A stretch of 64,000 bases of DNA from Haliscomenobacter sp. (GTDB taxonomy: Bacteria; Bacteroidota; Bacteroidia; Chitinophagales; Saprospiraceae). Below the pieces are notes generated by a model. The model saw only the letters and a list, made by a program, of their open reading frames with translations, had not been told where the DNA came from and did no database searches. Where the stretch lies: NCBI RefSeq assembly GCF_041740695.1, contig NZ_JBGSLK010000006.1:23639-87638 (forward strand). The letters are read 5' to 3'. Position 1 is the first letter of the stretch; each line of letters opens with the position of its first letter. Made by a program: the position numbers and the translations under genes. Positions 42,765 to 62,517 of the stretch are shown here, piece after piece.

Positions 42765-45700
42765 ATGAAGCTTTTGCATTTTACACTCACAGGAATGCTG
42801 TTGCTCGTAGGGCTTTGCCTGGGGGCACAGACCACAGTTCGAGGGGTCATTACCTCGATTAAAGGTGGTGAGCCGCTTATTGGGGCCACCGTTGTAATCA
42901 AAGGCACTGCAGTAGGTACGACTACTGATGTTGATGGAAAGTTTGAGTTGCAAGCTGACCCATCCAAAGATGTCCTTTTACTGAGCTACACGGGCTTCAC
43001 TTCTCAGGAGATTGCATTGAATGGTCGCACAACGGTTGACCTTCAGATGGAAGAATCCATTGCGCTCTTGGGCGAAGTCATCGTAACTGCTTTTGGAGAA
43101 TCTACCCGTGAAAAATTTACGGGTTCAGCGGCTACAGTAACTGCTGAACAAATCGCCAGACGGCCCATTACCAACGTTGGTCAGGCTATTGCAGGAGCAG
43201 GATCCGGGGTGCAAGCCACCATCGGGAGTGGCGCTCCAGGTTCAACGCCTGCGATTCGTATCCGTGGTTTTGGTTCAGTATCAGCATCCAATGCTCCATT
43301 GTATGTAGTAGATGGGATTCCTTACGATGCGGCTATTTCCAACCTCAATCCGGACGATATTGAAAACATCACGATCCTGAAGGATGCTGCTTCTACTTCA
43401 TTGTACGGGTCCAGAGCTGCCAACGGTGTGGTGATGATCACCACCAAAAAAGGCACCAAGGGTCAGGGTCAGATCAGCCTGAAGTACACTCGGGGTACTT
43501 CTCAGCGTGGTTTGCCAGAATACGACCGTTTGAACGCGGCTCAATATTATCCCTACATGTGGGAATCTTACCGCAACAGTTTGATGTCGCGTACCGCAAG
43601 TCCACTTTCGTTGGAAGCAGCCAGTACCAATGCCTCTGCCAACATCGTAGGACTCTTGGGTTACAATGCCTACAATGTACCAGCTGCTGATTTGGTGAGC
43701 ACTGCCGGAGTCTTGAACCCCAATGCACAATTGGTCTTCAGAGAAGAAGACCTCAACTGGGAAACTCCCCTTACGCGCGCAGGGCAACGTGACGAGGTCA
43801 ACCTTAACTTCAGTGGCGGCGATGACCGCAGTAACTTTTATGCTTCTTTTGCCTATTTGAACGACAAGGGCTTCTTGATTCGTTCCGATTTTGAGCGTTA
43901 CAGTGCACGTTTACAATTCAATACCCGTTTGAAGTCCTGGTTTTCGACTGGGGTGAATATTTCCTACACCAACTCTACTGCTAATCAGGATGACGCGGGT
44001 GGGAACACTTCATTTGTAAACCCCTTCTTTTTTTCCAGAGGGATGGGGCCAATCTATCCAGTTTATGCGTATGATCCCAATAATCCAGGAGAGTATCTGC
44101 TCGATGGCAATGGTCAGCGGCAGTACGACTTTGGTAACTTGAATGCGCTGGGTTTGCCTAACCGCCCTCAGTACGGTGGCCGCCATGCGGTTGCGGAAAC
44201 CGAACTGAACCAAAACTTCTTCCGTCGGAACCTCTTCAGTGGCCGTACTTACGGTGAAGTTTCTTTCTTGAAAGATTTCAAGTTTAGAGTCAATGTAGGT
44301 GCGGATTACGTCAACGTCAACGACAATACCTTTGGTAACCCAATCATTGGAGACGGTGCACCTGCGGGTCGGGCTACGGTAGAATTTACCAACCAATTGA
44401 CCCTGAACCTGAACCAGCAACTGACCTACAAGAAGAAGTTTGGAGAACACAATATTGATGTATTGTTGGGTCACGAGAATTACGATTACCGTACCAACTT
44501 CTTGACGGGTTCACGCTCACAATTGATCCTGGATGGTAACATTGAATTGGTCAACTTTACGACCACGACTAACCTGAACTCGGGGGCTGATTTCAACCGC
44601 CAGGAAGGCTACTTCTCTCGGGTTAACTACGACTACAAGAACAAGTACTTCGTTACCCTTTCGGCTCGCCGTGATGCGAGCAGTCGTTTTCAACAAGAAG
44701 TGCGTTGGGGTACCTTCTTTGGGGTCAGTGGCGCCTGGCAGTTGCACCAGGAGGAATTCCTGAAAGGCTCTTCATTGATCAACAATCTGAAGCTGCGTGG
44801 TTCTTATGGCCAAACGGGTAACAATGCCGGGATTGGTTTCTACGCTTGGCAGCCATTGTACAACCTGGGCTGGAACAACGCTGGCGAGGCTGGTATTTTA
44901 CAGGGTAGCTTGGGGAACCGCGGCCTGTCATGGGAGTCAAACAACCAGTTTGACCTGGCTTTGGAATTCGGCATCCTGAAAAACCGCATTGCGGGTACTT
45001 TTGAATACTTCAACCGCCAGTCGGATGATTTGTTGTTTGCCGTTCCACTACCAGTTTCAACGGGTACTGCATCACAAACCCGCAACATCGGGGCCATGTA
45101 CAACCGGGGCTTGGAATTGGAACTGAACCTCACGCCGGTACAAACCCGCGACTTTACCTGGGAAATCAACTTTAATGCTACCCGTTATCAGAACAAAATT
45201 ACCCGGATGCCGGAGAGCAATAAGGAGATCATTTCTGGAACCAAAAAACTCCAGGTCGGCAGTTCTTTGTTTGACTTCTGGTTGAGAGAGTGGGTAGGGG
45301 TTAATCCTGAAAACGGCAACGCAGAATACCGCGCCAATGCTTTCGTTGCTTCTAACTCACGGATCACCGAAGATGGTGATACCTTGACAACGACTTTGAA
45401 CAACGCACGTTTCCGTTACAATGGCTCCGCTATTCCTGACTTTAGTGGGGGTCTTACGAACACCTTTGAATTCAAAGGTTTCACTTTGTCCGTATTGTTC
45501 ATTTATCAGGTCGGTGGTTTGATTTACGATGGTGCCTACCAAGGCTTGATGAACTCTTCTGGGTATGGTGCTTCCAAGCATGTGGATGTGCTGAATCGTT
45601 GGCAAAAACCTGGGGACATTACCGATGTTCCTCGGGCAGACTTGGGCCGTTCGGTTGATCATGATGGAACTTCCGATCGCTGGTTGACTGATGCAACTTC

Positions 45701-45917
45701 CTTGAACTTGCGGAACGTTTCCCTGACTTACAGCTTGCCTGCAAGCCTGACTAAAAAAGTGAAAATCCAGGGTGCACAAATTTTTGTGACTGGTGAAAAC
45801 CTCGCTTTGTGGAACAAACGCAAAGGTATGGATGGCTTGGGTAGCTTTGAAGGCGTTACTGCCAACACTTATTCTTTCTACCGCAACTTTGTCGGTGGGA
45901 TTAACTTAACCTTCTAA
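42765..45917 (+). CDS. SusC/RagA-family TonB-dependent outer-membrane receptor
   Basis: It has a signal peptide and the carboxypeptidase-regulatory-like N-terminal domain 'VRGVITSIKGGEPLIGATVVIKGT'. The TonB plug motif is 'ITILKDAASTSLYGSRAANGVVMITTKKG'. It is 1050 aa and ends in a C-terminal Phe. Confidence 0.9.
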   Translation: MKLLHFTLTGMLLLVGLCLGAQTTVRGVITSIKGGEPLIGATVVIKGTAVGTTTDVDGKFELQADPSKDVLLLSYTGFTSQEIALNGRTTVDLQMEESIALLGEVIVTAFGESTREKFTGSAATVTAEQIARRPITNVGQAIAGAGSGVQATIGSGAPGSTPAIRIRGFGSVSASNAPLYVVDGIPYDAAISNLNPDDIENITILKDAASTSLYGSRAANGVVMITTKKGTKGQGQISLKYTRGTSQRGLPEYDRLNAAQYYPYMWESYRNSLMSRTASPLSLEAASTNASANIVGLLGYNAYNVPAADLVSTAGVLNPNAQLVFREEDLNWETPLTRAGQRDEVNLNFSGGDDRSNFYASFAYLNDKGFLIRSDFERYSARLQFNTRLKSWFSTGVNISYTNSTANQDDAGGNTSFVNPFFFSRGMGPIYPVYAYDPNNPGEYLLDGNGQRQYDFGNLNALGLPNRPQYGGRHAVAETELNQNFFRRNLFSGRTYGEVSFLKDFKFRVNVGADYVNVNDNTFGNPIIGDGAPAGRATVEFTNQLTLNLNQQLTYKKKFGEHNIDVLLGHENYDYRTNFLTGSRSQLILDGNIELVNFTTTTNLNSGADFNRQEGYFSRVNYDYKNKYFVTLSARRDASSRFQQEVRWGTFFGVSGAWQLHQEEFLKGSSLINNLKLRGSYGQTGNNAGIGFYAWQPLYNLGWNNAGEAGILQGSLGNRGLSWESNNQFDLALEFGILKNRIAGTFEYFNRQSDDLLFAVPLPVSTGTASQTRNIGAMYNRGLELELNLTPVQTRDFTWEINFNATRYQNKITRMPESNKEIISGTKKLQVGSSLFDFWLREWVGVNPENGNAEYRANAFVASNSRITEDGDTLTTTLNNARFRYNGSAIPDFSGGLTNTFEFKGFTLSVLFIYQVGGLIYDGAYQGLMNSSGYGASKHVDVLNRWQKPGDITDVPRADLGRSVDHDGTSDRWLTDATSLNLRNVSLTYSLPASLTKKVKIQGAQIFVTGENLALWNKRKGMDGLGSFEGVTANTYSFYRNFVGGINLTF

Positions 45918-45928
45918 AAACAACAACC

Positions 45929-47413
45929 ATGATGAAGTATAAATTTCTAATCTTATCTATTTTGACCTTGGGCCTGAGCTTGAGCTCATGTGAGAAAGAT
46001 TATCTCAATACTACGCCAACTGGTAGTGTAGATGCCGGTTCGGCCTACGCTACAACCAAAAACGCCAAAGCTGCAATCAATGGCATTTATCGCTCGATGA
46101 TGGTGCGTTATCGGGGCTCACAGGGCCATTCAGGCTTCCCAGCCTTGATGATCATCAACGATGTAATGGGGGAAGACCTGGTTTTTGCCAATGCCTCCAA
46201 TGGCTGGCATTTTGGGGAGCAGCGTTGGTTGTCGCACCGGAGCGATGTGGGTACCATGGCTTTATTCCCTTACGAAATGTTTTACCGCTTCATTGCCAAT
46301 GCTAACGTGGCCATTGCGAATATTGATAATGCAGTAGGTTTGCCTGCTGAGCGGGATCAATTAAAAGGAGAGGCTCTGGCTTTTCGTGGGTTTTCTTACT
46401 TCTATTTGGTACAATACTATGGCAAGCGTTATGATGCGAGTGCCAAACCGAACAGCGGACTAGGTGTACCATTGGTTTTGGAGCCAACTCAAGAAGGTTT
46501 GCCTCGTTCTACCGTGGAAGAAGTTTACGCCCAAATCAATACGGATTTAGAAGCTGCGGCTGCACTGCTTACTACCGCTCGTTCTGCAAAATCACACTTC
46601 AACAAAAATGTATTGAGAGGTATTCAGGCTCGGGTTGCATTGGCACAGCAAGATTGGGCCAAAGCTGCAACATTTGCGGCTGAAGCGCGTCAAGGGTTCA
46701 CCTTGATGTCGATCGCTCAATACCAGGATGGTTTTGCCGATGTTTCGAACCCAGAATGGATGTGGGGATTTGACCACCTGGAAGATCAATCGGAGTTCTT
46801 TGGTGGCTACCACAGCTACATTTCTTGTAACTACAACGCTTCTGTGATTCGTCAAACGCCAAAGACGATCAATAAATTGATTTATGACTTGATTCCAGCG
46901 ACGGATGTACGGGCCAAAATGTGGGTGAAAGCACCAACTGCTGCCAACGCAATTACCCCGCCAGGAGGAGTTAGAGCACCTTACATGGTACAAAAATTCC
47001 GCTTGCCCGGTACCCCAAGTACCAGTGTCATGGGTGATGTACCTTTCATGCGTGCGGGAGAGATGTACTTGATCGAAGCAGAGGCTAAAGCAAAATCAGG
47101 TGATGATGCGGGTGCTGCCAAAGCTTTGTTTGACATGGTGAGCAAGCGCGACCCTTCCTATGTACTGTCCACTAAAACCGGAGCAGAGTTGCTGGATGAG
47201 ATTTATTTCAACCGCCGTATTGAGCTCTGGGGTGAAGGTCACCGTTGGCTGGATCTGAAGCGTTTGAACCTGCCGCTGGACCGCAATGGGATTGGCCACT
47301 TGCCCGCAGTTGCCCAACTTTTTGAGGTTCCTGCTGGTGATGTGCGTTGGGAGTATTTGCTTCCTCGTGCAGAATTGGATGCCAATAAGGCAGCGGTACA
47401 GAATCCGTTGTAA
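45929..47413 (+). CDS. SusD/RagB-family nutrient-binding outer-membrane lipoprotein
   Basis: It lies immediately downstream of SusC. It has a lipoprotein signal ('LSLSSCEKD'), and 'RGFSYFYLVQYYG' is SusD-like TPR packing. Confidence 0.85.
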   Translation: MMKYKFLILSILTLGLSLSSCEKDYLNTTPTGSVDAGSAYATTKNAKAAINGIYRSMMVRYRGSQGHSGFPALMIINDVMGEDLVFANASNGWHFGEQRWLSHRSDVGTMALFPYEMFYRFIANANVAIANIDNAVGLPAERDQLKGEALAFRGFSYFYLVQYYGKRYDASAKPNSGLGVPLVLEPTQEGLPRSTVEEVYAQINTDLEAAAALLTTARSAKSHFNKNVLRGIQARVALAQQDWAKAATFAAEARQGFTLMSIAQYQDGFADVSNPEWMWGFDHLEDQSEFFGGYHSYISCNYNASVIRQTPKTINKLIYDLIPATDVRAKMWVKAPTAANAITPPGGVRAPYMVQKFRLPGTPSTSVMGDVPFMRAGEMYLIEAEAKAKSGDDAGAAKALFDMVSKRDPSYVLSTKTGAELLDEIYFNRRIELWGEGHRWLDLKRLNLPLDRNGIGHLPAVAQLFEVPAGDVRWEYLLPRAELDANKAAVQNPL

Positions 47414-48748: not shown

Positions 48749-49591
48749 TTAGTTAGTGAGCTGCCAATATCCGCCTTTGTCGGCACCTACCCTTTGGATT
48801 GTCCCGTTTTCTTTTAATTTGTTGAGCAAATACTCTACCCCTCTGCGTGTGAGTCCGGTTTCTCTCATCATCTCTTTGCTTGTAGTTTTAGCGTTGGATT
48901 TAATGAGGAGGAGGATTTTTTCTTCCGAAGTTTTCTCCACAGTTTTTAACGGACGTTGGAATGTCACAGTGAACATTCCTTCTGTACTGTATTGAGGCAA
49001 TGGTAAATTTGTTGCTTTCATTGACTCGTTCATTCGGTTGATTCCTGATCCGATTTGTTCAACGAGATGCATTTTTGCAAAGAGTCCAAAAATGAGCGGG
49101 TTACGGGAATGGCTTCGCTTGCCAAAATCTGCGGGGCTAATTGCACTTACTAATCCATCAGGGTTGCTGATTTCGATGCGGTCGGTGAATAATTCAACAG
49201 TAGTGACGGCGCCTTTGTCGTAGTAGTCGCGATGAGATAAATAGTTGATGATGGCTTCTTTGAATACCGTTTCGGGTATTTCCCAGATTTCATTCCTGGG
49301 GCCAGAGCCTTGGCCTTCAATGTCATACCGAACGTCCAGTTTTTCTCTGAGCCATAAAATAGCTTTGAGGTACTGAGCATACAAGGGGCCACCAAAAGGC
49401 TTGTCATCAATAATGTAACGTTTATTCGTGCCAGAGAAAGCAACGCAACGGATGATGGCTTTTTCAAAATAGGTTTCTGGCGCTTTGCCAAAGAACAAAA
49501 CTGCACCACTTTTTACAAATCCTTCACCCGTAAACAACTTCAGATTGTTGTACACCTGGAAATCGGGTACTGTGGCGCTCAAATGAGCCAT
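48749..49591 (-). pseudogene. C-terminal part (HATPase_c_4-like + winged HTH) of a RecG-like/AlbA_2-type ATP-binding regulator, separated from its N-terminal part by a frameshift
   Basis: It overlaps ORF 49579-50091 by 13 nt in a different frame. The two ORFs together have the typical length of about 450 aa for the family, and the C-terminal HTH is 'TSKEMMRETGLTRRGVEYLLNKLKENG'. Confidence 0.5.
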
Positions 49592-50091
49592 TTCCTTAAA
49601 AATAGCTGCGTTGGTTTTGTCAATTTATTGGCAGCATCAAAATCTCTACAGGGACTTTCATCAAAATAAATTTTCCCAGACTGCTGGAAAAAGCCCCTCA
49701 TTTCCTCTGCGGTAGTCAATTTTTGGCTATTCGGACCAAGATGAATGTATATGGCACCCGAAAAAATGTAAGGCTTTTCGGTACCCGAAGGCACCTCAAT
49801 TACACCGATATTTTTTCCTTCCACTTCAACCATAGATAAGGTACAATACAACGCAGGGCTAATGTCGCTAATGCTGTTTTGAATGGCGGAACGTTTGGCA
49901 TTGTCGATGTTGATGCCCTTGATTTGGTTATGGTCATCTACACCTAATAGTACTACACCTCCAGCCGCGTTGGCAAACGCGCATACTTCCTCAGTGAGTT
50001 CCCTTACTTTTGAAGGAACTGCAACCTTGAACTCGGCATTATAACCCTCGCTGCTGGTAACGATTAATTGGATGTCTTCTGCTGAAAGCAT
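49579..50091 (-). pseudogene. N-terminal part (AlbA_2/Schlafen-like DNA-binding domain) of the same split regulator
   Basis: 'EGYNAEFKVAV' and 'VCAFANAAGGVVLLGVDD' are typical of AlbA_2. Confidence 0.5.
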
Positions 50092-50716: not shown

Positions 50717-51655
50717 CTACAAATTAAACCGATACCCTAATAAACATTCTAACCCAAATGAATTATTACTGGCCAGTTGCTGGAGGTTATAGCCACCCAA
50801 TATTCCGATCCGAAGTTTTCCATCTTGTAGAATTCCATCTTTGAGAATTACCCCGGCCTGTAGCGAGACTTGCCCCCCCGAAGCATAGGATACCCCCGTC
50901 CAAAAGGTATCTTCTAATTCATAGTTGAGATTGATGGAGTATCCGAGCAGATTTGGTTCTGAAAAATGCAGCCAGATCGAAGGCTCGAGGTAGGAAAAAT
51001 CATACGGGATACGGAACCCAACGAAGGTATTGGCTGCAAAAACACGATTGAGATGACCAATGGTGTTGGCTGAACTGCTGGGAATTTTACTGCGAATCAA
51101 TTGATTGGCGGCTAACCCAAAGAAAAACCAGGTTTCATCGTAATCAAAACGATAATGTGAAGTATAAACCATACCAAAACCAGCATTGAAGCGACCTACA
51201 TTGTTGAAATCAACAATTGCTTGAGGGTCATCGGCATCCGCCACAACTGCACGATTGGCTGCAAATTGATATTGCTGGAAGCTGGTAGACAAACCAAAAG
51301 TGATTTGATCATCTGATCGCAAGCCCAATTCCATTTTATAAGCATAAGTCAATGCAAGACTGTTGGTGGTGAATTGACCTACCTCATCGTGTTGTAAAAA
51401 ACCGCCCAGGCTTAACTTGCGATGAATGGCTGGCACATGGATAAATGCTTGAGCAGTGGCAGGGGCACCAGAAAAACCAAGCCATTGCTGGCGATAAAAT
51501 GCACCGAACTCCATGAAGTCTTCAGCTGAAGTAAGCCCGGGATTGTAGATAAAGTCGGTGGATCCCATCGGTGAACGATAAGGAAGCTGTTGCGCTCCCA
51601 GTGTAGTACTTAAAAATAGAGCACAGCATATATAAACTGCATTTAGATTTTGCAT
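50717..51655 (-). CDS. T9SS PorP/SprF-family membrane protein (type-B CTD partner)
   Basis: It has a signal peptide and the PorP/SprF-like N-terminal region 'GFSGAPATAQAF'. It lies immediately downstream of a gene with a type-B CTD. Confidence 0.75.
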   Translation of the reverse strand: MQNLNAVYICCALFLSTTLGAQQLPYRSPMGSTDFIYNPGLTSAEDFMEFGAFYRQQWLGFSGAPATAQAFIHVPAIHRKLSLGGFLQHDEVGQFTTNSLALTYAYKMELGLRSDDQITFGLSTSFQQYQFAANRAVVADADDPQAIVDFNNVGRFNAGFGMVYTSHYRFDYDETWFFFGLAANQLIRSKIPSSSANTIGHLNRVFAANTFVGFRIPYDFSYLEPSIWLHFSEPNLLGYSINLNYELEDTFWTGVSYASGGQVSLQAGVILKDGILQDGKLRIGILGGYNLQQLASNNSFGLECLLGYRFNL

Positions 51656-51656
51656 T

Positions 51657-54600
51657 TCAATTGCGGATTATGGTGAGTGAATTTTTGAGAACAACTTCAT
51701 CAAGTTCCAAAACATAGTAATATACACCAGGAGGAAGTGGCCTGCCATTGTAGCTTCCATCCCAGTCATTTTGATAATTATCTTGTTTAAAAACAATCCC
51801 GCCCCAACGATTGAATACCGTTATTTTAGTGGTGTTGAACAACTCCAGGTCATTGAATTTTAGAACATCATTTTTCCCATCGCCATTAGGGGTGAATAAG
51901 TTGATCGGTTTGACCAATTCAGTGATATTGGAATAAACGCCAACAAAAACAGTATCCCTAAGTATACATTTGTTGTCATCCTGAATGCTTACAACAAAGT
52001 AGGTGCTATCCTTGGGTGCTACTTCAGGATTGGAGATTGTTTCGTTGCTTAATTCAAATTCAGGTGTAGTCCATTGATACATCTTACCTCCGCTTGCTTG
52101 TAGTTTAAGTTTCCGGCCAACCAGTATGACGGTATCTTTTCCAGCGGAGCCATTTACTTTGCGTACCTCGATTTGGGCATAGGCTGTATCGGTACCACAA
52201 CGGTTTTCACTTATATAGCCATAAGTAGTATTAATATTGGGTTTGACCCGAATTTTATCCGCTGTCAATGGTTTACTCGTATTGCTAGGGTCTAACCAAC
52301 GCAGCGGACTGCCACCTTTTCCAACAAGTGTCGTAGAATCGCCCTGGCAAATAAAACTGACAGTTCTGTCAATTGTCGCTACGGGTAAATTGAGTGCAAT
52401 AACCCTAGTAGAGCCTTGTCCAATACACCCGTTTCGATCAGTAACAGTAACTTGATACAAACCGGCGGTGGCCGCAGTGATTAACCCTGTAGTGGAGCCG
52501 GTATTCCATTTGAAAATTTGCCCCCAGGAGCGCACATCTAAGGCCAGGTTTTCATTGGGACAAATGGTATCCGTGGGTACCAAGCTCACTACTGGGTTGG
52601 CCCATAAAATCAAACGGGTACTATCTGTCGTTTGGCAACCAAATTCATTGCTCACTTTAACCCGGTATACTTTGGCGTCTTCAACCGTAATACTACCCAC
52701 TTGGGCGCCAGTATTCCATTCATACATTTTTCCAGAACTCCTAACATCGAGGGTAGTTGTGGTGCCGGAACAAATGCGCAAGCTATCCGGTAGTGAAGGA
52801 TTGGGGTTGTTGTAAAAAATTGTGCGCAGGCTATCCAACGTTTCACAGCCAAATTTATCGAGGTAATTAACGGTATAAAGGCCAGCTGTACTCAGTTGAA
52901 TCATTGGGTCTGTGCTTCCATTGCTCCATGAGATGACCTTACCCAGTGAACTTGCATCAACACCAATGGTTTTGCCAAGACAGGCCGTAAGTGGGTTGGG
53001 CCATTGACGGGCAATGGTTGGTCTATTCTCAAGTAATACGCTATCAACAGCTGAGCAACCCTGTTCATTACTGACCATTACACTGACGCGCCCTGCTTGG
53101 GCTACTTCAATTGTTCCAGTGCTGGCACCACTGCTCCAGCTAAATTTGGTCCCCAGTTTTGACACATCCAAGGTAACTGCCTTATTCGGGCAAAGGATCA
53201 TTTTATCGGGAAGGTCTATTTTGGGGTTTGGAGCTATCGTGATGGTCGTAGAATCCAGAACGGAACAACCCTCTGGATTGGCAATAGATACACTATACAT
53301 TCCCGATTTGCGTGGAACAATTGAGGCGCTGGTTTCGCCAGTGCTCCATAGATACTTTAGAGGACCAGTACCCGCCACAATTTTTTTCGTATCTACTTCA
53401 CAATCATTGATGACTCTGGGTAAAGTACGTTGAGGAGCTGCCTTGAAGGTTATGGTTACACTATCGATAGATTGACAATTGGCGATGTTGCTTACCGTCA
53501 CGGAATACAAACCAGATTTTGCGGATTCTATAGACGGTAATTTTTCATCGGTACTCCAGCGGTAACGGTAACCTACGGAGTCGACAACGCTTAGTTTGGC
53601 AATTTTTCCATTACAAAGAGATTGATCCGGCCCCAGGTTAACGACTGGTGCGGGTAAAAAGGCCACGCTAGAGCTGTCTTTTATCACGCAACCTTCAGCG
53701 TTCGTGAGTGTAACAATATAAAGTCCACTCTTTTTGGGTGAAATAATTGCAGTTGTATCGCCAGAACTCCAGTTGAATTTTATAGCCGTGGTGACGGGAT
53801 TCAAAGTAATCGACTCTGATGCGCAACGGTTAACCTCAGAAGGGAGATTACTAATCGGGAGTGCTGCAGTGGCGACTTCAGTACTTGTTGTGCTTCTACA
53901 CCCTGCTGAATTACTGGCGTTGACTTGATAGATTCCTGCTTTCCGTACTGTGATACTGGCAGCCGTATCTCCGGTGCTCCAGCGGAAAAATTCTGCACTA
54001 CCACCAGGTTTTAGTACCAGTGAGTCACCAAAGCACAAATTGGTTCTTAGCGGAAGTGAGACCATAGGTGGGTCCACAAAAGTGACTTTGATGCTATCTA
54101 TACTGCTGCAATTGGTGGCATCGGTTAATTTAAGTTTATACCAGCCGGGATTTTTCACTGCAAGGAAATAGGTGCTGTCTCCGGTGTTCCATTGATAAGT
54201 AGTTGCAAGGTTTTGAGGAGCACTAAGTTGAAGGCTATCACCTTTGCAGATATCCCGATTGGCACCCAATTCTAAAGCCGGACGGGCATTTACAACCAAG
54301 TCCACTCCTTTTTCATTGGTGCAACCAAAAGCGGTGCTTACGACAACACTGTAACGACCTGCTTTACTTACTGCGATAAAATTGGCTTTGGAACCGGTAC
54401 TCCAGCTAAAGCTTGCACTTTTTACATTGGTGCTCACTTCAATCCGGGCAGTTTCCCCCTGGCAAATTTGTGGAGAAGAGGAGCTGAGGTTTACTTCTGG
54501 AATAATTTTTAGGTCTTTTATTTCAATGCTTTGTGTTTTTATACACCCTTTTAAAGAAACCGTTAACGTGTAAACTCCACCCGTTTCAGTGCTTAGTTTT

Positions 54601-55232
54601 GATCGACTGCTGATCACCCCCAAACTGTCGGTTGACCATTGAAATTTTGCACCAATGACATCAATTTGTGGATTAAGTTCAATTTGAGGTTCATTGCAGG
54701 TGATGGTGTCCAGGGCTGGTAGTGTAAAATTGAAGTTTGGAGAGATGGCGTTTAACTGCTCGAGCCGATCGATCGCCAGGTTTTGGAAACCAGGATTTTG
54801 ACTGTTTTCTATTCCTTCAAATTTAGTCGTGATCAAATCGTCTTCAATGGTACACCCATTTGGTAAGATGATGCGAAATTTGAGAGGTTCATTGGACAAA
54901 AAACCTTCATCTCCCTCGGCTGTTTTGCCATAGACTTGCAGGATCACCGATTTTTCCTGCCAGGTAATTTGGCCAGCGCACCTTAAGGTATCCGCAGATT
55001 CAAAAACGACAGAAATGATGCTGCCCTTAGGAAGGGCTTGCCCGTCCAGCTTGGGTACTCCCACTGGTATAAGGATAATGTGAGCATTCGGATTGGGTAA
55101 AACGCAGTCTTGTTGGGCGTAGCCCATAATATACAACCCTAACGCCAGCAAGGTTAGGTATAGTTTCCTCCATTTGAACATGTCAAAAGGTATTTGAGAT
55201 GAAAAGAAGTGTGGAGCAAATGCTTTATTCAC
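51657..55232 (-). CDS. large surface protein with about 13 tandem Ig-like repeats and a T9SS type-B C-terminal sorting domain (gliding-motility-associated CTD)
   Basis: The C-terminus 'FTPNGDGKNDVLKFNDLELF...VFNRWGGIVFKQDNYQNDWDGSYNGRPLPPGVYYYVLEL' matches the type-B CTD. It has repeated units of about 75 aa with conserved C...W..G..Y.V patterns. The likely signal-peptide start is the internal Met 'MFKWRKLYLTLLAL'. Confidence 0.75.
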   Translation of the reverse strand: MNKAFAPHFFSSQIPFDMFKWRKLYLTLLALGLYIMGYAQQDCVLPNPNAHIILIPVGVPKLDGQALPKGSIISVVFESADTLRCAGQITWQEKSVILQVYGKTAEGDEGFLSNEPLKFRIILPNGCTIEDDLITTKFEGIENSQNPGFQNLAIDRLEQLNAISPNFNFTLPALDTITCNEPQIELNPQIDVIGAKFQWSTDSLGVISSRSKLSTETGGVYTLTVSLKGCIKTQSIEIKDLKIIPEVNLSSSSPQICQGETARIEVSTNVKSASFSWSTGSKANFIAVSKAGRYSVVVSTAFGCTNEKGVDLVVNARPALELGANRDICKGDSLQLSAPQNLATTYQWNTGDSTYFLAVKNPGWYKLKLTDATNCSSIDSIKVTFVDPPMVSLPLRTNLCFGDSLVLKPGGSAEFFRWSTGDTAASITVRKAGIYQVNASNSAGCRSTTSTEVATAALPISNLPSEVNRCASESITLNPVTTAIKFNWSSGDTTAIISPKKSGLYIVTLTNAEGCVIKDSSSVAFLPAPVVNLGPDQSLCNGKIAKLSVVDSVGYRYRWSTDEKLPSIESAKSGLYSVTVSNIANCQSIDSVTITFKAAPQRTLPRVINDCEVDTKKIVAGTGPLKYLWSTGETSASIVPRKSGMYSVSIANPEGCSVLDSTTITIAPNPKIDLPDKMILCPNKAVTLDVSKLGTKFSWSSGASTGTIEVAQAGRVSVMVSNEQGCSAVDSVLLENRPTIARQWPNPLTACLGKTIGVDASSLGKVISWSNGSTDPMIQLSTAGLYTVNYLDKFGCETLDSLRTIFYNNPNPSLPDSLRICSGTTTTLDVRSSGKMYEWNTGAQVGSITVEDAKVYRVKVSNEFGCQTTDSTRLILWANPVVSLVPTDTICPNENLALDVRSWGQIFKWNTGSTTGLITAATAGLYQVTVTDRNGCIGQGSTRVIALNLPVATIDRTVSFICQGDSTTLVGKGGSPLRWLDPSNTSKPLTADKIRVKPNINTTYGYISENRCGTDTAYAQIEVRKVNGSAGKDTVILVGRKLKLQASGGKMYQWTTPEFELSNETISNPEVAPKDSTYFVVSIQDDNKCILRDTVFVGVYSNITELVKPINLFTPNGDGKNDVLKFNDLELFNTTKITVFNRWGGIVFKQDNYQNDWDGSYNGRPLPPGVYYYVLELDEVVLKNSLTIIRN

Positions 55233-55256
55233 ATTTGCTCCACGATAAAACTCAAA

Positions 55257-58200
55257 TTACTGGATGATGAGTCGATGGGTTTGACTGTAATCAGCAAAGG
55301 TTACCTTGACCAAGTAGACACCTGGATTGATGTCTGCCAGTTGTAGCTCTTCTTTGTGACGCCCCTTATCGAGTTTCAATTTAAGCTCTGGGCGAATTAA
55401 GCGCCCCTGGACGTCAGTTACAGCGATAATCACCTGACTGCTCTGGATCAGATCAAGATGCAACCAAGTGCTCTCTTGAGTTGGATTAGGTGCCAATAAT
55501 ACCTTTGACCGGAGCAGAGGAAGTGACACTCTACTCGTTTTTGCCCAAATCAAATCATTGGTACGATAAGTCAAAGAGGGCAATGAAACGTTGAGATCCT
55601 CCAACTTGAGCGTACTGCCATCAGGTGTTACAAAATGAACTTCAAATGCTTCATTTTCCCAGAGGCCATCCTTTTCACGAGTATAGGGATCATCACCCCA
55701 AATGATAACCTGCAAATTTTGACCAGTGAATGTTTGTTGTCCACGTAGCACGCCTTGTTTATCCCAAACTTTAACTACAGATTCGATCGGGAGCTGAGTT
55801 AATAATTCTTTATAAAACAGAATAGACGCGTTGTGTGCGGTAATGACTTGGGCTTCGTCACCGCGTAGTTCGGGTACAATTGGGTCTCTCAACGCAGTAC
55901 AAGTTGCCCCACCACAATTCAGCAATAACTGACGTTTGGTTCCGTTGCGGATTTGTACCTGAAAGGCCTGCCCTGGTTGCATGCAAATCTCATCAGGAGA
56001 AGAAAAGCCTGGAATATAGGTATTGGTCAAACTTTTAACCGCTGTAATGCCTAAGGCAGGGTCGGAAAATATTTCACCAACAGGTCGGTTTACGTCACAG
56101 AAGTACGGCACAATCTGCCAACCTTCCCGGAGTGGAATGGACACCTGATTTGGGTCAATTCTGCTACCTGGAATGGAAAGGGTGACATCATTTTTGGCTT
56201 TGACAAAATAGCCCTGTAAGATGTCCCAATTGCCCAAATCGTTGGAAAATCCTGGAACGAATGAAGCTGATATAGACTTCACCAACTGAATTTGATCAAT
56301 AATAGGCTGGAAAACCACCTCCATATCGGGAGCCTGCGGAGTAACCTTTGAACTAATCAGATTCCAGCCCTTCTTCAGGAGAATGTCATGGGTGGCATTG
56401 TTTCCGGAGCGAAGTTTACCAATTGCACTGAGTGCCTGGTTTTTGAATTTATCCGTTGCGTCAACAAACGCATTGCCAATGGCAGTGCCAATAGAGAGAT
56501 AGTCAGCGTTTACGTCGTAAACTTGTTGATCTGCGGCACGCCAAACTTTGAGGACCAAAACTTCTCCATCCTTGAACCCTTCTTGTTCATTGGGCGTACT
56601 TGGGTCATCTCCATTTACGGTGATCAAGGTGTTTTTGTCTTCCCAGATTTTTTTGCCAGCAATAACCAGCGTACCGTTTGATGCTTTATAGAAAAAGCCA
56701 AAATAATCTCCAACTTGTAATGGATTTCCTCCGACCTCTGCATCAACATTGCGTAGCACCGCAACCGTATGACTCAGTAAAGAAGAAGTAGGTTCACCCC
56801 AAGGAGGAGTACCACCACCTGTGCCCCCAGAACCGCCTGCTTCTTGATTGATCTGAATGCTAACCCGGTTTCCACTACATGAAAGTGAAACTGTTCCAGA
56901 TCTTGCTTGGGTTGAATTATTAGGATCAACTTGAATTCTTAACAAATTTGTACCTAATAAGGTGGTTACTCTAAGCCACGAAACGCTTGGTGTTGCCACA
57001 TTCCAAGTTGAATTGGCCGTAACTGTTACCGTTTGTTCGCCTCCTGTTTTGGAGAAATTTAGCGTGCTAGGACTTACGGATAGCTGGCAGCTCTGTTGGC
57101 CACATGGAATTCGGACACAACAGTATCTCCAGGTCTGGCTGATTGGATCGTAGTAGCGCACCGAAATGATGCGATCAACGCAAGGTGTAGGCGCAGGCAC
57201 ACTGATTACTCTTACATTTTGGTTGAGTACGGCACCATTGTTGTTGTCGTCTAGCCAAACAATCTGGTTGGCATTGCCATCATCCAGTGATAGTTCATAA
57301 TTGGAGCCAGTAACATTGTACACCAAAGATTGGCAGTTAAACGGATCACAAATTACGATGCGTTGGCAGCAGAAATACCAGGTGCCATTCTTATAGTAAC
57401 GAACACTAATGGTGCGGGTAATGCAGTTGCCATTGCTTGGTGGTCGTACAAACGTTGAGATCAAACCTTCACCGATGTCTTCATTGGTCTCGTCAATGGT
57501 CCAGGTTTGATTGGAGGTGCCTGGCTCATCGAGCGTGAATTGGTATCCTTGCTCTGAATATTTGTAAATAATTGGATTACAATTAAAAGGATTGCACAAC
57601 CAAATTTTTCTGCAACAAGTATAGACCTGCCCATTCAAAGTGTATTGAACAACAAAGGTTCGGACTTGACAGTCGGCCAATGGCCGCAACCCCCCAATGG
57701 TCACCCCTGTTCCCAATTGCTGCCCGGTTTCAAGTACAGACCAACTGATATTTGAAGCCCCAGCTTGACTCAATGTAAACTGAAAACCAGTATTTTCAAA
57801 GTACCGGTAGGCAATGAGGTTACAATTGTCGTTGGTGCAACTCGGTGGGGGTGTTCCACATTTGATCAATACACAACAATATCGCCAGGTACGACTGATC
57901 GGATCATAGTAACGTACTGAAATGAGTCGGTCACGGCAAGGTGTCGGAAGTGGAACAACGGTCGTCGGAGTACCTGTAACCAAAACCTGGCTGTTGTTGT
58001 CGTCATCCAGCCAGGAGATTTGCTCCGCGTTGGTATCATCCAGGGTAAGCTCATATCCATTGGATTGGGTGACGTAACGAATGACATTACAGGACAATGG
58101 ATCACAGAGTCGAATCCGCAAACAACAAAAATACCAGATTCCATTTTTGAAATAACGGACACTGATCGTATAATTCACACAATTACTAGGCGGCCGTACA

Positions 58201-61200
58201 TATTGGGTATTTAAACCAGTTCCAATGTCTTGTCCCGTTTCATCTATGGTCCAGCTTTGACTAGTGGTGCCTGGCTCCGTCAAAGTAAATTGGAACCCTT
58301 GATTAGGGACGTAACGATAAACGATGGGGGTGCAATCCAGAGGGTTACACAACCAAATACTCCGGCAACAAATGTACCAGCGGCCATTCCAAAAATAACG
58401 TACAGATATTGTTCTACGAATACATGTTCCCGGAACAGGCAACAAGGATGATGCATTGCCAGTTCCAAGATTTTGACCAGTATCATCCACAATCCAGCTG
58501 ATGTTGCTCGCACCTGGTTTGTTTAAGTCAAATTGATATCCACTGGATTCGACGTTTGATACGAAGCGATAGTCAAAGTCGTAGCAATCAAAAGGATTAC
58601 ACAACCAGATGGTCCGGCAGCAAATGTACCATCGGCCATTCCAATAGTATTTGACGGTGATGGTGCGGAAAACGCAAGTACCAGGTCGTGGCAGTAAATT
58701 TGAGGTTGAGCCGCTGCCCAAGCCTTGGCCTGTATCATCTACAATCCAGCTGATGTTGCTGGCTCCGGTACGATTGAGCCGAAACTGGAACCCATCAGAA
58801 GTTTGACTGTACAAATAATCGAAATCAAAACATTCAAAAGGGTTGCTGACATAGACGTTGTAACAGCAGTATTCTAAACAACCGCTGGCATTGATGTATG
58901 GAAAACAAACTTCATAGTTGCCAACAGAAGGAAAAGTATACTCGAAATTATTGCCAGTCGCGTAGCTGATTTCTTGGTTGTTGACCAACCATCTTCGACC
59001 TGGAGCTATACTTTGGGTACTGCTAAAGGCAAATTTCAAACTTCCTCCCGTACCAGTATAACGGTAGGAAATTGAACCACAATTGTAGTTTTTTTGAGCT
59101 TGTTCACAACAATTAACAGAAAGCTGAAAAGCACCTGCGGAGCTGACAAATTGGCCATCTACTACAATGTAATAAGTACCTGGATCAAGGGTTATTGTAA
59201 TGGCCTCCTGGTTAGTGGTGCGATTGTCCGAAGAACTTTCGGCAACACATTGACTTGTAGCGCCAAATTGAATATTGTTACATTCTCTCAATAAAAAAAG
59301 GTCCAGATCCAACCCTAAAGTTTGGATGGCCATATTGATGGTAACTGGAGTACGTTGGCTCAACGTAAACTTATAGGCTTTTTCTGGCCCAACAAAAGTC
59401 GATGCAGTAAGACAATTGTAGGAACTAAGAATGTTTGTTTCAGCAACAGTAGATCCACTCAAGGTAGTTCCACAATTTATCGGAGTTGCTTTTTCACAAA
59501 TACTCCCGTTTTGCCCACAACTTACGGAGATCTGGAAGGCCCCCATCGAAGTGGTAAATTGCCCATCAACGATGATGTAATAGGTTCCAGGATCGAGGAT
59601 TCGAGTGATGTTTTCCCGATTGGAAATGCGATTGTCCGATGAACTTTCGGCAATACAGATGTCACCTGAAACTTTGAAAACGTCATTCTCTCCTGAAAAA
59701 TAGTTACAAACATCACCTAAAAGGAACAAATCAAGATCTAAACCTGCATTTTGGATGGCTAGGTCAATACTTACCGAAGTCCGCTGGGTTAAGACCAATT
59801 TGTATACCTTTTCAGGACCCAATAGGGTAAATCCTCCTAAACAGTCGTATTCCCGGAGCAAATTACTCTCGTTGACTGTAGTGCCGTTTAAGGTGTTGCC
59901 ACAACTGATGGGCATTGCCTTAGAACAAATACTTCCACCTTCATTGCCTCCACAAACCAGTGATAGCTGGAATGCACCTTGGGAGTAAGAAAATTGCCCG
60001 TCAATAACAATGTAATAGGTGCCAGGGCCTAAGGTTTTAGTAATATTCTCGCGGTTGGAACTGCGATTGTCCGAAGAACTCTCAGCAATGCAGATGTCAC
60101 CGGAAACTTTAAAAACATCATTCTCTCCTGAAAAATAGTTACAAACATCTCCCATTAAAAATAAATCCAAATCAAGACCGGAGGTTTGAATGGCCAAAGC
60201 GATTGAAACTGTTGTGGTTTGAGTTAAAGTGAATTTATACACTTTCTCTGGGCCAACTAAAGTAAACCCACCCAAACAGTCATAATTTTGCAGTTGATTG
60301 GTTCCGCCTACAGTTGTGCTATTGACCGTATTGCCACAACTGATGGGAACGGCTTTGGAACAAATACTCCCGCCACCTTCTCCACCGCCTCCGGTATTGC
60401 CACAATTTAAAGACAATTGGAAGGAACCCCTGGAGGTAGAAAATTGACCATCAATGACGATATAATAAGTACCTGGGTTTAAGGTTTTTGAAATAACCTC
60501 TTTATTGGACAATCGGTTATCACTTGAACTTTCAGCAATACATGAATTGTTACCACACCCGGAAAGCAAAAAAAGATCAAGGTCAAGACCTTGAGCCAGT
60601 ATACTCATGTCCAAAGTTACCGTAGTCGTTTGGCTGAGTGTAAAGGAATAAACCTTTTCTGGGCCAACTAAAGTAGACGCTGTTAAACAATTGTAGCTGC
60701 TTATGATATTGGTTTCGGAATTGGTACTGCCAGAAGTAGTACTCCCACAATTGATAGGAGTGGCTTTTTCACAAATATTACTCGGAGAACCCCCTCCTCC
60801 TTCGCCACCCCCGCCAGTGTTTACATTGCTGCAGCTCAACGACAATTGAAAGGAGCCTCTGGAAGTGCTATATTGACCGTCTACCACAATGTAATAAGTT
60901 CCTTCTTCCAGATAAGTGCTGATGTTTTCCAGATTGGAACTGCGATTGTCTGCACTACTTTCAGCAACACAATTACGGACTTCCCCGCTGCAGCCATCAA
61001 ATATAAATACATCCAAATCAAGCCCTAATGCCTGGATAGCCATTCTGACATTAACCGTCGTTGCTTGGCTAAGGGTAAAAGAATATACTTTGTCTGGACC
61101 GACTAAACTAGAAGGTAAACAATTGTAACTGGATATCGAATTTGTTTCCGAAGAAGTACTGCTATTTATGGTGTTCCCACAACTAATCGGGATAGCCTTT

Positions 61201-61628
61201 GTACACAAACCTTCAAATATAATCCCTTCCTCATCTACGACAACATATTGTGGGGATTCCAAATTTATTCCATTTGTCCGGATTTCATATTCCCCAGGAT
61301 CATTTACCCTTAGCTTTGTTGAGGTTTCAAAGGGTACTAAAGCTTGTGTACAAATGGTATTCGTTGTACGACTAACCGCTACATCAAGATCAATGTACCT
61401 TCCACTTACACTTACTTTTGTAATGGTGGCACCAGTGTAACAACCGTTGGGAAAGTAACCCTTTAAGGTTATGCTGAAATCCCGAACAACCAAAGGTGTG
61501 CCAGGATCAACAATAACCTCGGTGACTGTCTGTGCCCCGGTCAAATTAATGATGGACATGAATGACCATACCAAGAGGAAAAGTCTAAGCATAATGTTTG
61601 TTTTTAGCATTGTTATTTTGTGGGTCAA
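55257..61628 (-). CDS. giant (2123 aa) secreted protein with PPC-like repeats, Cys-rich repeats, a BACON/Ig-like domain and a T9SS type-A C-terminal sorting domain
   Basis: It has a signal peptide. There are six repeats of about 125 aa ('YNCL...LVGPEKVY.FTL.Q.T.V.....I...GLDLDLFL......C.AESS.DNR.SN.E.I...L.PGTYYIVIDGQF..S.G.FQLS..C'). There are about eight repeats of about 90 aa ('CNPF.C....Y.......GYQF.L..PG..N.SW...DTGQ.LG.G.......P.....C..RTISVRY...G.WY.CC..I.LC'). The C-terminal Por-secretion CTD is '...GVYLVKVTFADYSQTHRLIIQ'. Confidence 0.75.
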   Translation of the reverse strand: MTHKITMLKTNIMLRLFLLVWSFMSIINLTGAQTVTEVIVDPGTPLVVRDFSITLKGYFPNGCYTGATITKVSVSGRYIDLDVAVSRTTNTICTQALVPFETSTKLRVNDPGEYEIRTNGINLESPQYVVVDEEGIIFEGLCTKAIPISCGNTINSSTSSETNSISSYNCLPSSLVGPDKVYSFTLSQATTVNVRMAIQALGLDLDVFIFDGCSGEVRNCVAESSADNRSSNLENISTYLEEGTYYIVVDGQYSTSRGSFQLSLSCSNVNTGGGGEGGGGSPSNICEKATPINCGSTTSGSTNSETNIISSYNCLTASTLVGPEKVYSFTLSQTTTVTLDMSILAQGLDLDLFLLSGCGNNSCIAESSSDNRLSNKEVISKTLNPGTYYIVIDGQFSTSRGSFQLSLNCGNTGGGGEGGGSICSKAVPISCGNTVNSTTVGGTNQLQNYDCLGGFTLVGPEKVYKFTLTQTTTVSIALAIQTSGLDLDLFLMGDVCNYFSGENDVFKVSGDICIAESSSDNRSSNRENITKTLGPGTYYIVIDGQFSYSQGAFQLSLVCGGNEGGSICSKAMPISCGNTLNGTTVNESNLLREYDCLGGFTLLGPEKVYKLVLTQRTSVSIDLAIQNAGLDLDLFLLGDVCNYFSGENDVFKVSGDICIAESSSDNRISNRENITRILDPGTYYIIVDGQFTTSMGAFQISVSCGQNGSICEKATPINCGTTLSGSTVAETNILSSYNCLTASTFVGPEKAYKFTLSQRTPVTINMAIQTLGLDLDLFLLRECNNIQFGATSQCVAESSSDNRTTNQEAITITLDPGTYYIVVDGQFVSSAGAFQLSVNCCEQAQKNYNCGSISYRYTGTGGSLKFAFSSTQSIAPGRRWLVNNQEISYATGNNFEYTFPSVGNYEVCFPYINASGCLEYCCYNVYVSNPFECFDFDYLYSQTSDGFQFRLNRTGASNISWIVDDTGQGLGSGSTSNLLPRPGTCVFRTITVKYYWNGRWYICCRTIWLCNPFDCYDFDYRFVSNVESSGYQFDLNKPGASNISWIVDDTGQNLGTGNASSLLPVPGTCIRRTISVRYFWNGRWYICCRSIWLCNPLDCTPIVYRYVPNQGFQFTLTEPGTTSQSWTIDETGQDIGTGLNTQYVRPPSNCVNYTISVRYFKNGIWYFCCLRIRLCDPLSCNVIRYVTQSNGYELTLDDTNAEQISWLDDDNNSQVLVTGTPTTVVPLPTPCRDRLISVRYYDPISRTWRYCCVLIKCGTPPPSCTNDNCNLIAYRYFENTGFQFTLSQAGASNISWSVLETGQQLGTGVTIGGLRPLADCQVRTFVVQYTLNGQVYTCCRKIWLCNPFNCNPIIYKYSEQGYQFTLDEPGTSNQTWTIDETNEDIGEGLISTFVRPPSNGNCITRTISVRYYKNGTWYFCCQRIVICDPFNCQSLVYNVTGSNYELSLDDGNANQIVWLDDNNNGAVLNQNVRVISVPAPTPCVDRIISVRYYDPISQTWRYCCVRIPCGQQSCQLSVSPSTLNFSKTGGEQTVTVTANSTWNVATPSVSWLRVTTLLGTNLLRIQVDPNNSTQARSGTVSLSCSGNRVSIQINQEAGGSGGTGGGTPPWGEPTSSLLSHTVAVLRNVDAEVGGNPLQVGDYFGFFYKASNGTLVIAGKKIWEDKNTLITVNGDDPSTPNEQEGFKDGEVLVLKVWRAADQQVYDVNADYLSIGTAIGNAFVDATDKFKNQALSAIGKLRSGNNATHDILLKKGWNLISSKVTPQAPDMEVVFQPIIDQIQLVKSISASFVPGFSNDLGNWDILQGYFVKAKNDVTLSIPGSRIDPNQVSIPLREGWQIVPYFCDVNRPVGEIFSDPALGITAVKSLTNTYIPGFSSPDEICMQPGQAFQVQIRNGTKRQLLLNCGGATCTALRDPIVPELRGDEAQVITAHNASILFYKELLTQLPIESVVKVWDKQGVLRGQQTFTGQNLQVIIWGDDPYTREKDGLWENEAFEVHFVTPDGSTLKLEDLNVSLPSLTYRTNDLIWAKTSRVSLPLLRSKVLLAPNPTQESTWLHLDLIQSSQVIIAVTDVQGRLIRPELKLKLDKGRHKEELQLADINPGVYLVKVTFADYSQTHRLIIQ

Positions 61629-62179
61629 CTTATTTCTGCAAATCGCTTTACTTGCAGCTTTTCTTTGATCCTTCGTTTGTGGGTGTTTACTGTATTTGTT
61701 GAGATGAATAAGCGCTCGGAGATTTGTTTGCTACTCAATCCTCTTCGAATCAACTGCACGATTTCTTGCTCACGAAGGCTCAGCTGTTTTAGTTTATCCT
61801 GGATGTTTTTTTTGGATAAATTATTCAGATTGAGTTGAATAAGCCGCAGCGTGGCGATCATTTGTGCTTCGGTAATTGGATCAATGAGTATGGCTTCAGG
61901 TTGAGTTATCCAGGCCTTATCCAGGGCATCCAGATTGAGATCACTTGAATAATACAACAAGCGGAACGAAATGTGATCCTGCAAATCCTGGATCCATTTA
62001 CTGTATTTCAAATCTATTGGTAATGGTGCTACCAATAAATCGGGCTGTCGCTCCTGCCAAGTTTCGGTGTCTTGGAGTTGCTCAATCGGAGCTTCCCAAA
62101 ACATCTTACTATGGCTCTTTAGCAAAACTTTCCAATTGGAATGAAATTCCACCGAGGCATTAAGCATTAATATTCGCAT
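61625..62179 (-). CDS. LuxR/GerE-family HTH transcriptional regulator with an atypical N-terminal domain
   Basis: The C-terminal HTH is 'LSLREQEIVQLIRRGLSSKQISERLFISTNTVNTHKRRIKEKL'. Its stop overlaps the start of the giant cargo gene by 4 nt. Confidence 0.65.
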   Translation of the reverse strand: MRILMLNASVEFHSNWKVLLKSHSKMFWEAPIEQLQDTETWQERQPDLLVAPLPIDLKYSKWIQDLQDHISFRLLYYSSDLNLDALDKAWITQPEAILIDPITEAQMIATLRLIQLNLNNLSKKNIQDKLKQLSLREQEIVQLIRRGLSSKQISERLFISTNTVNTHKRRIKEKLQVKRFAEIS

Positions 62180-62517
62180 AAGAATGAGGTGCGATCGTTG
62201 GAAACGACTGCAATAATTATTTTGTTAGTAAATTTTAAGTATTGACAATTAGTTTGTTAATCTTTGGTGTGTTAGACTTTGGTTTTAAAAATTCTACCTT
62301 ACTCAAGATCGAGATGTAAGATTAATGGGAAATTACAGGAATATTATTTTTGGGATATACAATAATTAGAGTCAATACATAATGGTAAAACTACAATGTT
62401 CAATTTACACCGTTTGTCACTATTTTTGGTGAATTTGAATGAATTAAAATTAAAATAATTTTTGAGGGTTTATAGAGACGAGGCTTAGCTCGCCTCCATA
62501 AATTTCCATGGGACCAA

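Follow-up and report, generated by a model that had tools for sequence, protein, structure and literature searches.

The subject of this report is a secreted-protein locus in a 64,000-nucleotide stretch of DNA from Haliscomenobacter sp. (contig NZ_JBGSLK010000006.1, positions 23,639 to 87,638; hereafter the window). The locus centers on the gene for a giant type IX secretion system (T9SS) cargo protein, which is headed by a gene for a LuxR-type regulator and, further upstream, by a conserved non-coding element. We find that the giant protein carries an uncatalogued family of Cys-rich repeats with a predicted Ig-like fold, and that the regulator is an atypical response regulator whose receiver domain no longer carries the phospho-acceptor Asp. 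On the minus strand the order is a cargo with two PPC units, the regulator, the giant cargo, a type-B cargo and a PorP/SprF gene, all tightly packed. The features of the central part are given below, with residues of the giant protein counted from the ATG at 61610 (CTD, C-terminal domain; HTH, helix-turn-helix; nt, nucleotides; aa, amino acids).

62373..62436 (-), conserved non-coding element of ~65 nt, candidate operator and promoter
61625..62179 (-), atypical response regulator of 184 aa with a GerE/LuxR HTH
61820-62179 (-), Asp-less pseudo-receiver, regulator residues 1-120
61628-61807 (-), GerE/LuxR HTH, regulator residues 125-184, PF00196 at 57.4 bits (cutoff 23.5)
55257..61610 (-), gene of the giant T9SS type-A cargo, 2117 aa when started at ATG 61610
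61230..61529 (-), N-terminal beta domain of ~100 aa, distinct from PPC, residues 28-127
59103..61229 (-), five tandem PPC (pre-peptidase C-terminal) units (PF04151) with six Cys each, residues 128-836
57087..59093 (-), eight tandem Cys-rich, PKD-like repeats of ~82 aa with a predicted Ig fold, residues 840-1508
56841..57083 (-), BACON domain (PF13004), residues 1510-1590
55491..56825 (-), conserved module of 445 aa without a family match, residues 1596-2040, motifs GWNxISS and WGDD
55260..55493 (-), T9SS type-A CTD (TIGR04183, PF18962), residues 2040-2117

The regulator and the giant protein correspond to NCBI entries P0001 and P0034, each with 100% identity. The nearest other genome is a metagenome-assembled genome named 'Chitinophagales bacterium' (JAAFHQ010000011.1, hereafter L001). 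Both L001 and a Logan assembly (L002) carry, in the same order, the regulator, a giant orthologue (2113 and 2112 aa, respectively), a 1186-aa CHU_C protein and a PorP/SprF gene, and their giant orthologues are 65% identical to the giant protein of the window. When species-representative genomes were scanned with a single protein, the only match fell on the L001 contig, and the taxonomic range is known from few named sources. An earlier note on this DNA had recognized a LuxR-type regulator gene adjoining the giant ORF (open reading frame), and this is borne out by the HTH score listed above and by the adjacency kept in the two other genomes. In a further locus, L005 (4507-9282), the gene after a regulator 50% identical to that of the window encodes a type-A T9SS cargo of 1591 aa with reprolysin, CARDB and BACON domains, which suggests that large T9SS cargos of differing kinds recur as partners of this regulator family. 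A regulator homologue also heads genes for other secreted proteins in L003, L041 and L042.

The longest giant ORF (55257..61628, minus strand, 2123 codons) starts with a TTG at 61628 that overlaps the TGA of the regulator gene. Two in-frame ATGs follow, at 61610 (2117 aa) and 61592 (2111 aa), the latter being the start annotated by NCBI (P0034). From the first ATG, residues 1-27 (MLKTNIMLRLFLLVWSFMSIINLTGA, followed by Q) form a signal peptide of the normal Sec type, read directly from the sequence, and the orthologues begin with MKSRLLFLLILLFPLWVWG, again followed by Q, 26-38 nt past their regulator genes. The 4-nt overlap that had been taken as a sign of translational coupling exists only with the TTG start, and we consider it an artefact, since the longest-ORF rule picked the TTG and both ATGs, like the starts of the orthologues, are followed by a signal peptide of normal type. 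With either ATG, the two genes are separated by 14 or 32 nt. Co-transcription of regulator and giant gene thus loses the overlap as an argument; the short gap still favors it, and we regard it as probable from the layout of the sequence.

The presence of the signal peptide together with a type-A CTD that scores above the cutoffs of both families (TIGR04183, 48.1 bits, cutoff 23; PF18962, 38.1 bits, cutoff 27) marks the giant protein as a T9SS type-A cargo, as had been proposed. Where six PPC units had been counted there are five, and residues 28-127 constitute another domain. The PF04151 match (102 bits, cutoff 25.9, E 3.4e-29) is reported as four stretches, in which five units are visible. 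Apart from a weak similarity in P0080, only P0159 and P0161 have a counterpart of residues 28-127; these residues gave no match in PHROGs or in a copy of Pfam that does not hold PF27154. In the precomputed, roughly position-ordered domain lists of the orthologues, PF27154 ('ORF11_beta') comes first, before PPC, and it probably corresponds to this domain. The BACON module that had been placed after the repeats is also there, with a marginal pass of PF13004 (27.7 bits, cutoff 25), while BACON_2 stays just under its cutoff (24.1 bits, cutoff 25). A Gly-rich linker connects it to the 445-aa module. Searches of the giant protein against Pfam and NCBIfam returned no catalytic family.

The 445-aa module yielded nothing significant in PDB and Pfam profile searches. 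At least eight further proteins (P0159, P0056, P0060, P0089, P0162, P0041, P0055 and P0066) carry homologues of it, with 29-64% identity, between their Cys-rich repeats and the CTD. By eye, two related subdomains of ~110 aa (G-D-x-I-G-x-F ... W ... GDD ... G-F/L-x-x-G-E) flank the GWNxISS center, and the module may hold an internal duplication, for which BLAST gives a marginal E of 0.039. Separately, the N-terminus of the type-B cargo (54900-55130) aligns with giant residues 1625-1689 and 1940-2006 at 26% identity and E 0.01. A subdomain common to the two proteins was considered and set aside, the similarity being marginal.

The earlier note had described about eight repeats of about 90 aa with an invariant cysteine framework. 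The number is indeed eight, and the length is closer to 82 aa (81-84 aa for R1 to R8). The framework is equally clear: C6, W36 and Y69 and the pair C78-C79 are common to all eight repeats, as is Y11. Each repeat matches the family hidden Markov model (HMM) with E values of 1e-18 to 1e-33. The pairs R2/R3, R4/R7 and R5/R8 are 70%, 66% and 60% identical, respectively, which indicates that a block of several repeats was duplicated long ago; both orthologues have the same repeat count and order. R1 belongs to a divergent, more PKD-like type.

No named sequence family accounts for these repeats. Single repeats R2 to R8 had no Pfam match at E<=10, and R1 matched PKD_3, PKD_4 and PKD below threshold (E 0.03-0.14, 12.6-14.4 bits). 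Among 82 diverse family members, six matched PKD_4, the best with E 6e-4 (20.2 bits against a cutoff of 27), and R1-type members more generally show colinear, sub-threshold matches to PKD, PKD_3 and PKD_4 (E 6e-4 to 0.16). No repeat reached the gathering score of the PKD families (PF00801, PF18911, PF16820). The repeats had no NCBIfam match, and the region is also blank in the newer precomputed Pfam annotation; sequence and profile searches of the PDB with the repeat gave nothing beyond non-significant matches to the Ig domains of IL-12 p40 (E 0.06), and a word-index search with the repeat profile retrieved no homologue. By contrast with these searches, running HMMER exhaustively over 1.84 billion cluster representatives recovered 125 proteins at E<=1e-3, 67 of them at E<=1e-30. 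Most of them exceed 1000 aa in length, and the repeat occurs in up to 16-18 copies per protein. Within the last 100 residues of the 124 other family members, type-A sorting domains are found in 82 and type-B sorting domains in nine; many of those without a sorting domain are truncated sequences that end inside a repeat. Where a source is named, it is Saprospiraceae or Haliscomenobacter.

Over 459 full-length copies, C6 is conserved in 100%, C74 in 99%, W32 in 98%, C75 in 84%, Y65 in 83% and C56 in 61%. These positions are numbered along the family consensus. Of 309 repeats with a Cys in the C56 region, 307 also have one at a distance of 3-9 residues past the CC pair, and this post-CC Cys is the first C of the CNPF.C motif of the next repeat. 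A minority of repeats, of the R1-like type, have C62 and C70 instead, with C62 found almost only when C75 is present; repeats that lack C75 retain the other four cysteines. The co-occurrence in 307 of 309 repeats fits a staple that closes the F-G hairpin onto the linker. We infer from these patterns of co-occurrence that the core disulfides are C6-C74 and C56-linker Cys, with a fifth, variable cysteine.

AlphaFold2 modeling of the Cys-rich repeat, as the earlier note had recommended, predicts an all-beta domain (pLDDT, predicted local distance difference test, 94; pTM, predicted template modeling score, 0.82). A Foldseek search with this model had its best matches, with TM (template modeling) scores of 0.52-0.57, in PKD domains and the Ig domains of CD4. 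The view that the repeat belongs to no named domain thus holds at the level of sequence, where there is no confident family; by predicted fold it is Ig-like and PKD-like, and it is unusual only as a family. The repeat is therefore an uncatalogued family with a modeled Ig-like fold. When compared to PKD domains (such as PKD1 of PrtV, 4l9d; an archaeal S-layer protein, 1l0q; PKD1 of polycystin-1, 1b4r), the family differs in a cysteine framework absent from canonical PKD models, made of the near-invariant C6 and C74-C75, usually with C56 and the linker Cys in CNPF.C, and in its limitation to ~125 clusters, mostly of T9SS cargos. Most probably it is a divergent, disulfide-stapled offshoot of PKD that is specialized for such cargos. 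With ~125 clusters and hundreds of copies, it is ready for a Pfam-type entry of its own, having been missed by current libraries; it is almost exclusive to T9SS cargos and can serve to flag giant surface proteins in Saprospiraceae and other, related Bacteroidota.

The regulator gene is annotated by NCBI as encoding 159 aa, beginning at M26. The upstream MRILM start is kept in 22 homologues, indicating that the true gene encodes 184 aa and starts at 62179. These homologues, which were retrieved by a word-index search, are 180-197 aa long and share 43-54% identity with the regulator over its conserved full length. In a Pfam search the regulator matched neither the receiver family PF00072 nor the autoinducer-binding domain PF03472, and its N-terminus had been proposed to be a non-receiver, possibly novel sensor domain. 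The AlphaFold model (pLDDT 82), the check that had been suggested for this domain, argues otherwise: it displays the beta1-alpha1 through beta5-alpha5 succession of a receiver, followed by a four-helix HTH. Foldseek matches the model to full-length NarL/FixJ response regulators (StyR, LiaR, VraR, FixJ, RcsB, EvgA, NarL and VpsT, with E values of 8.5e-9 to 1e-5), and a sequence profile aligns residues 2-174 to VraR. The residues of the phosphorylation site are missing. When aligned with canonical regulators, the acidic pair DD is replaced by N-A in the window regulator and by S/N-D in its relatives; the phospho-acceptor Asp by Pro (among the aligned relatives by P, T, A, G, M or L); and the conserved Lys by Asp (His in most relatives). 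The Ser of the T/S position is retained. With the Asp, the acidic pocket and the Lys lost, the regulator would not be switchable by a histidine kinase. It is a pseudo-receiver, atypical response regulator, a known class defined by its Asp-less receiver (PMC12632262; see also PMC4395418).

VpsT, CsgD and SecR (PMC12632262, PMC4395418, PMC13199381) provide the closest comparison, having the same receiver fold and GerE/LuxR HTH with the phosphorylation residues missing. Like atypical NarL/FixJ regulators, the window regulator has no adjacent histidine kinase, and VpsT is among its structural matches. It differs from them in belonging to a small family (22 homologues) that is too divergent for PF00072 and that has its own upstream palindrome.

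This palindrome is part of the non-coding element, which in the window consists of block 1 (AAATTCACCAAAAATAGTGACAAACGG), a spacer of ~10 nt and block 2 (ACATTGTAGTTTTACCATTATGTATTG). The inverted repeat TCACC-N6-(G)GTGA lies at 62416-62433, inside block 1. An alignment of five loci, which comprises the window, L001 (1565-1630), L002 (9770-9840), L003 (6010-6075) and L005 (3790-3855), gives block 1 as AAATTCACCAAAAACGGTGACAAACG and block 2 as ATATTGTAATTTTACCATTGCGTTTTG, with a variable spacer in between. Whichever genes come next, the element precedes each regulator homologue that was examined. No second copy of the palindrome with <=1 mismatch exists in the 64-kb window. A scan of metagenomes for the palindrome pattern returned 37 matches, three of which (L039, L041 and L042) are accompanied by a variant block 2 and a regulator homologue; the other 34 are chance or coding matches. 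We also considered the element as a structured RNA, and rejected this since it has no Rfam match and shows no covariation; for that reason we read it as a candidate operator and promoter. A dimeric HTH protein encoded just downstream of a 16-bp palindrome is a classical autoregulatory arrangement. A scan for sigma-70 promoters stayed at background, with 33 found against 25 expected. We note that a second palindrome, TCACC-N4/5-GGTGA, lies 20-30 nt before the regulator start in L001 (~1687-1700) and L003 (~6244-6256); at this place L002 has the related CTACCAC...GTGGTAG, and no equivalent was seen in the window.

The remaining features of the cluster are the following:

55211..55243 (-), perfect 13-bp stem-loop with a pyrimidine-rich tract, 14 nt past the giant stop
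51657..55181 (-), type-B CTD cargo, 1174 aa from M18, signal peptide MFKWRKLYLTLLALGLYIMGYAQ
50717..51655 (-), PorP/SprF-family outer-membrane protein, PF11751 at 125.9 bits
62518..64000 (-), paralogous cargo with PPC x2 and a type-A CTD, open to the window end

The stem-loop has a folding energy of -24.6 kcal/mol (z -6.0) and a weak T tract. Perfect hairpins of 14-15 bp with different stem sequences occupy the same place in L001 (8653-8690) and L002 (16853-16890). The hairpin is probably a terminator or a 3'-end stabilizer. The mechanically called type-B ORF (51657..55232) begins with a GTG that falls within the hairpin loop, and the true start is probably M18, the ATG at 55181 (MFKWRKLYL...). 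The gene callers used for L001 and L002 seem to over-extend the type-B gene in the same manner. From the hairpin and the GTG inside its loop, we propose that regulator and giant gene form one unit that ends, or is stabilized, at the hairpin; the genes downstream of it would then be expressed separately or by read-through.

The type-B cargo is recognized by CHU_C (82.9 bits) and TIGR04131 (63 bits, cutoff 35) and is separated by 1 nt from the PorP/SprF gene, whose product is the partner that type-B CTD cargos usually have (PMC9143113). The arrangement is similar to that of SprB/SprF of Flavobacterium johnsoniae (PMC9143113, PMC12618676), where a type-B CTD gene also directly precedes the PorP/SprF gene; it differs in that the pair is here linked, in conserved order, with a dedicated regulator and a giant cargo of type A. 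The earlier outline of the locus overlooked this downstream pair of the conserved cluster. On the other side, the PPC-repeat paralogue that had been placed upstream is present. It carries a type-A CTD and runs into the window end, its PPC units are 37-40% identical to those of the giant protein, and an AT-rich spacer of 338 nt separates it (62518) from the regulator gene.

Taken together, these results point, with a moderate degree of confidence, to a kinase-independent and probably autoregulated locus for a T9SS-exported surface adhesin or fiber, with a PKD-like, disulfide-stapled stalk and a distal binding part made of the N-terminal domain and the PPC units. This reading follows from the absence of a recognizable catalytic domain, the stalk-like repeats and the distal array of potential binding units. 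The regulator would bind the palindrome as a dimer and control its own transcript, from which the giant gene, having no palindrome of its own, would also be read; the hairpin after the giant stop would end or stabilize most transcripts. The giant protein would be exported by Sec, with ~40 disulfides formed as it folds in the periplasm, and then be translocated by the T9SS through its type-A CTD. If it behaves like other type-A cargos, this domain would next be removed and the protein anchored at the outer surface. There, the eight PKD-like Ig domains and BACON would most likely form a rigid stalk, with the N-terminal beta domain and the five PPC beta-sandwich units kept at a distance from the cell as an array for binding. 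Downstream, the type-B protein together with PorP/SprF would act as a customary secretion and anchoring pair.

Several observations weigh against this interpretation. The exact Bacteroidetes -7 consensus TAnnTTTG is not found upstream of the regulator. The standard repeat has five cysteines, with no obvious intradomain partner for C75. The regulator is not tied to this type of cargo, since in L003, L041 and L042 it and the element stand ahead of operons for different secreted proteins. Finally, the 445-aa module and the N-terminal domain could conceal an enzymatic or other activity, and PPC and BACON domains usually accompany hydrolases. A different view takes the giant protein for an enzyme, secreted or anchored at the surface, in which the 445-aa module or the N-terminal domain is a novel catalytic domain and the PPC, PKD-like and BACON parts are accessory or substrate-binding. 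Family descriptions list PPC and BACON as typical companions of secreted proteases and glycan-active enzymes, the cargo behind the L005 regulator carries reprolysin metalloprotease domains, and the 445-aa module keeps many invariant residues across its carriers. Among these residues, however, G, W and P predominate, and not D, E, H or S of the typical catalytic kind, two related small subdomains around a center resemble a binding module (by eye, with weak BLAST support), and Pfam, NCBIfam and PDB sequence or profile searches disclosed no catalytic family. We hence consider an enzyme unlikely; of the two possibilities that had been left side by side for this locus, a regulated adhesin is the better reading and a surface enzyme is kept as its rival.

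The regulatory part of the interpretation also has a competitor, in which the regulator is either non-functional or an orphan active elsewhere, its position reflects only a shared promoter or hitch-hiking, and the palindrome is bound by another factor. The conservation of the element with the regulator gene, and not with the cargo, would agree with this, as would the unrelated gene sets that follow the pair in L003, L041 and L042. Yet genes for secreted proteins lie on the same strand within ~14-40 nt after the regulator in every locus with sufficient sequence (the window, L001, L002, L003, L005, L041 and L042), and the palindrome is found nowhere else in the window; we give an orphan regulator little credence. 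A somewhat stronger, although still doubtful, case can be made for the Cys-rich repeats being nothing but over-divergent PKD domains, whose cysteines provide ordinary extracellular stabilization and which deserve no family of their own. The predicted fold is nearest to PKD domains, R1-type members show the colinear matches described above, the core W..D..G...G...Y.V.Y resembles, by eye, the PKD pattern WDFGDG ... Y.V.L.V, and some repeat-bearing relatives have been named 'PKD repeat protein' by JGI (Joint Genome Institute). Against this stand the absence of the cysteine framework from canonical PKD models and the restricted distribution of the family. Much less probable is a role of the fifth cysteine in intermolecular disulfides or metal binding, which would make the protein a cross-linked component of a matrix or sheath and not a monomeric stalk. 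The odd number of cysteines in the standard repeat and the dispensability of C75, where the other four are kept, are compatible with such a role, and a passage of PMC3156403 describes the genus Haliscomenobacter as sheathed. On the other hand, the repeat region totals 42 cysteines, an even number, the linker cysteines C1251, C1258, C1503 and C1508 could pair intramolecularly with the odd ones, and nothing ties the giant protein to the sheath. Just as small is the chance we assign to a broader conjecture, namely that C75 cross-links cargos into fibers or a sheath in filamentous Saprospiraceae and that the Asp-less regulator and its private operator form a kinase-independent cassette. If true, the Asp-less LuxR regulator and the TCACC-N6-GGTGA operator would be a dedicated cassette for surface-matrix operons.

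The adhesin or surface-fiber locus that we favor is built entirely from components of known kinds: type-A and type-B cargos, a PorP/SprF partner, Ig/PKD-like repeats and a pseudo-receiver regulator. Like the T9SS type-A surface proteins of TIGR04183, the giant protein combines a Sec signal peptide and a type-A CTD with a multi-domain, beta-rich passenger, and its neighborhood likewise holds more T9SS cargos and a PorP/SprF gene. It differs from them in having no detected catalytic passenger and in its unusual size (2117 aa) and composition (five PPC units, eight Cys-rich repeats, BACON and the 445-aa module). What is new is the Cys-framework domain family, the 445-aa C-terminal module and the conserved regulator-operator cassette. 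No new kind of machinery is involved, and the value of the analysis lies in refined annotation that will not surprise a T9SS specialist, including the correction of two likely mis-annotations, at the starts of the regulator and the type-B cargo. It also provides a directly testable regulatory hypothesis, in which a conserved palindrome and a cargo operon belong with an Asp-less LuxR regulator, for the filamentous bacteria of activated sludge, a group in which next to nothing is known of how T9SS cargos are regulated.

Two further observations concern the surroundings of the cluster. At 48749-50091 (-), an AlbA_2/Schlafen ORF (170 aa) and a HATPase_c_4/wHTH ORF (280 aa) overlap by 13 nt and look like a single regulator gene split by a frameshift. 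Upstream, on the opposite strand to the cluster, 42765-47413 (+) encodes a SusC-like TonB-dependent receptor (1050 aa) and a SusD-family protein (494 aa).

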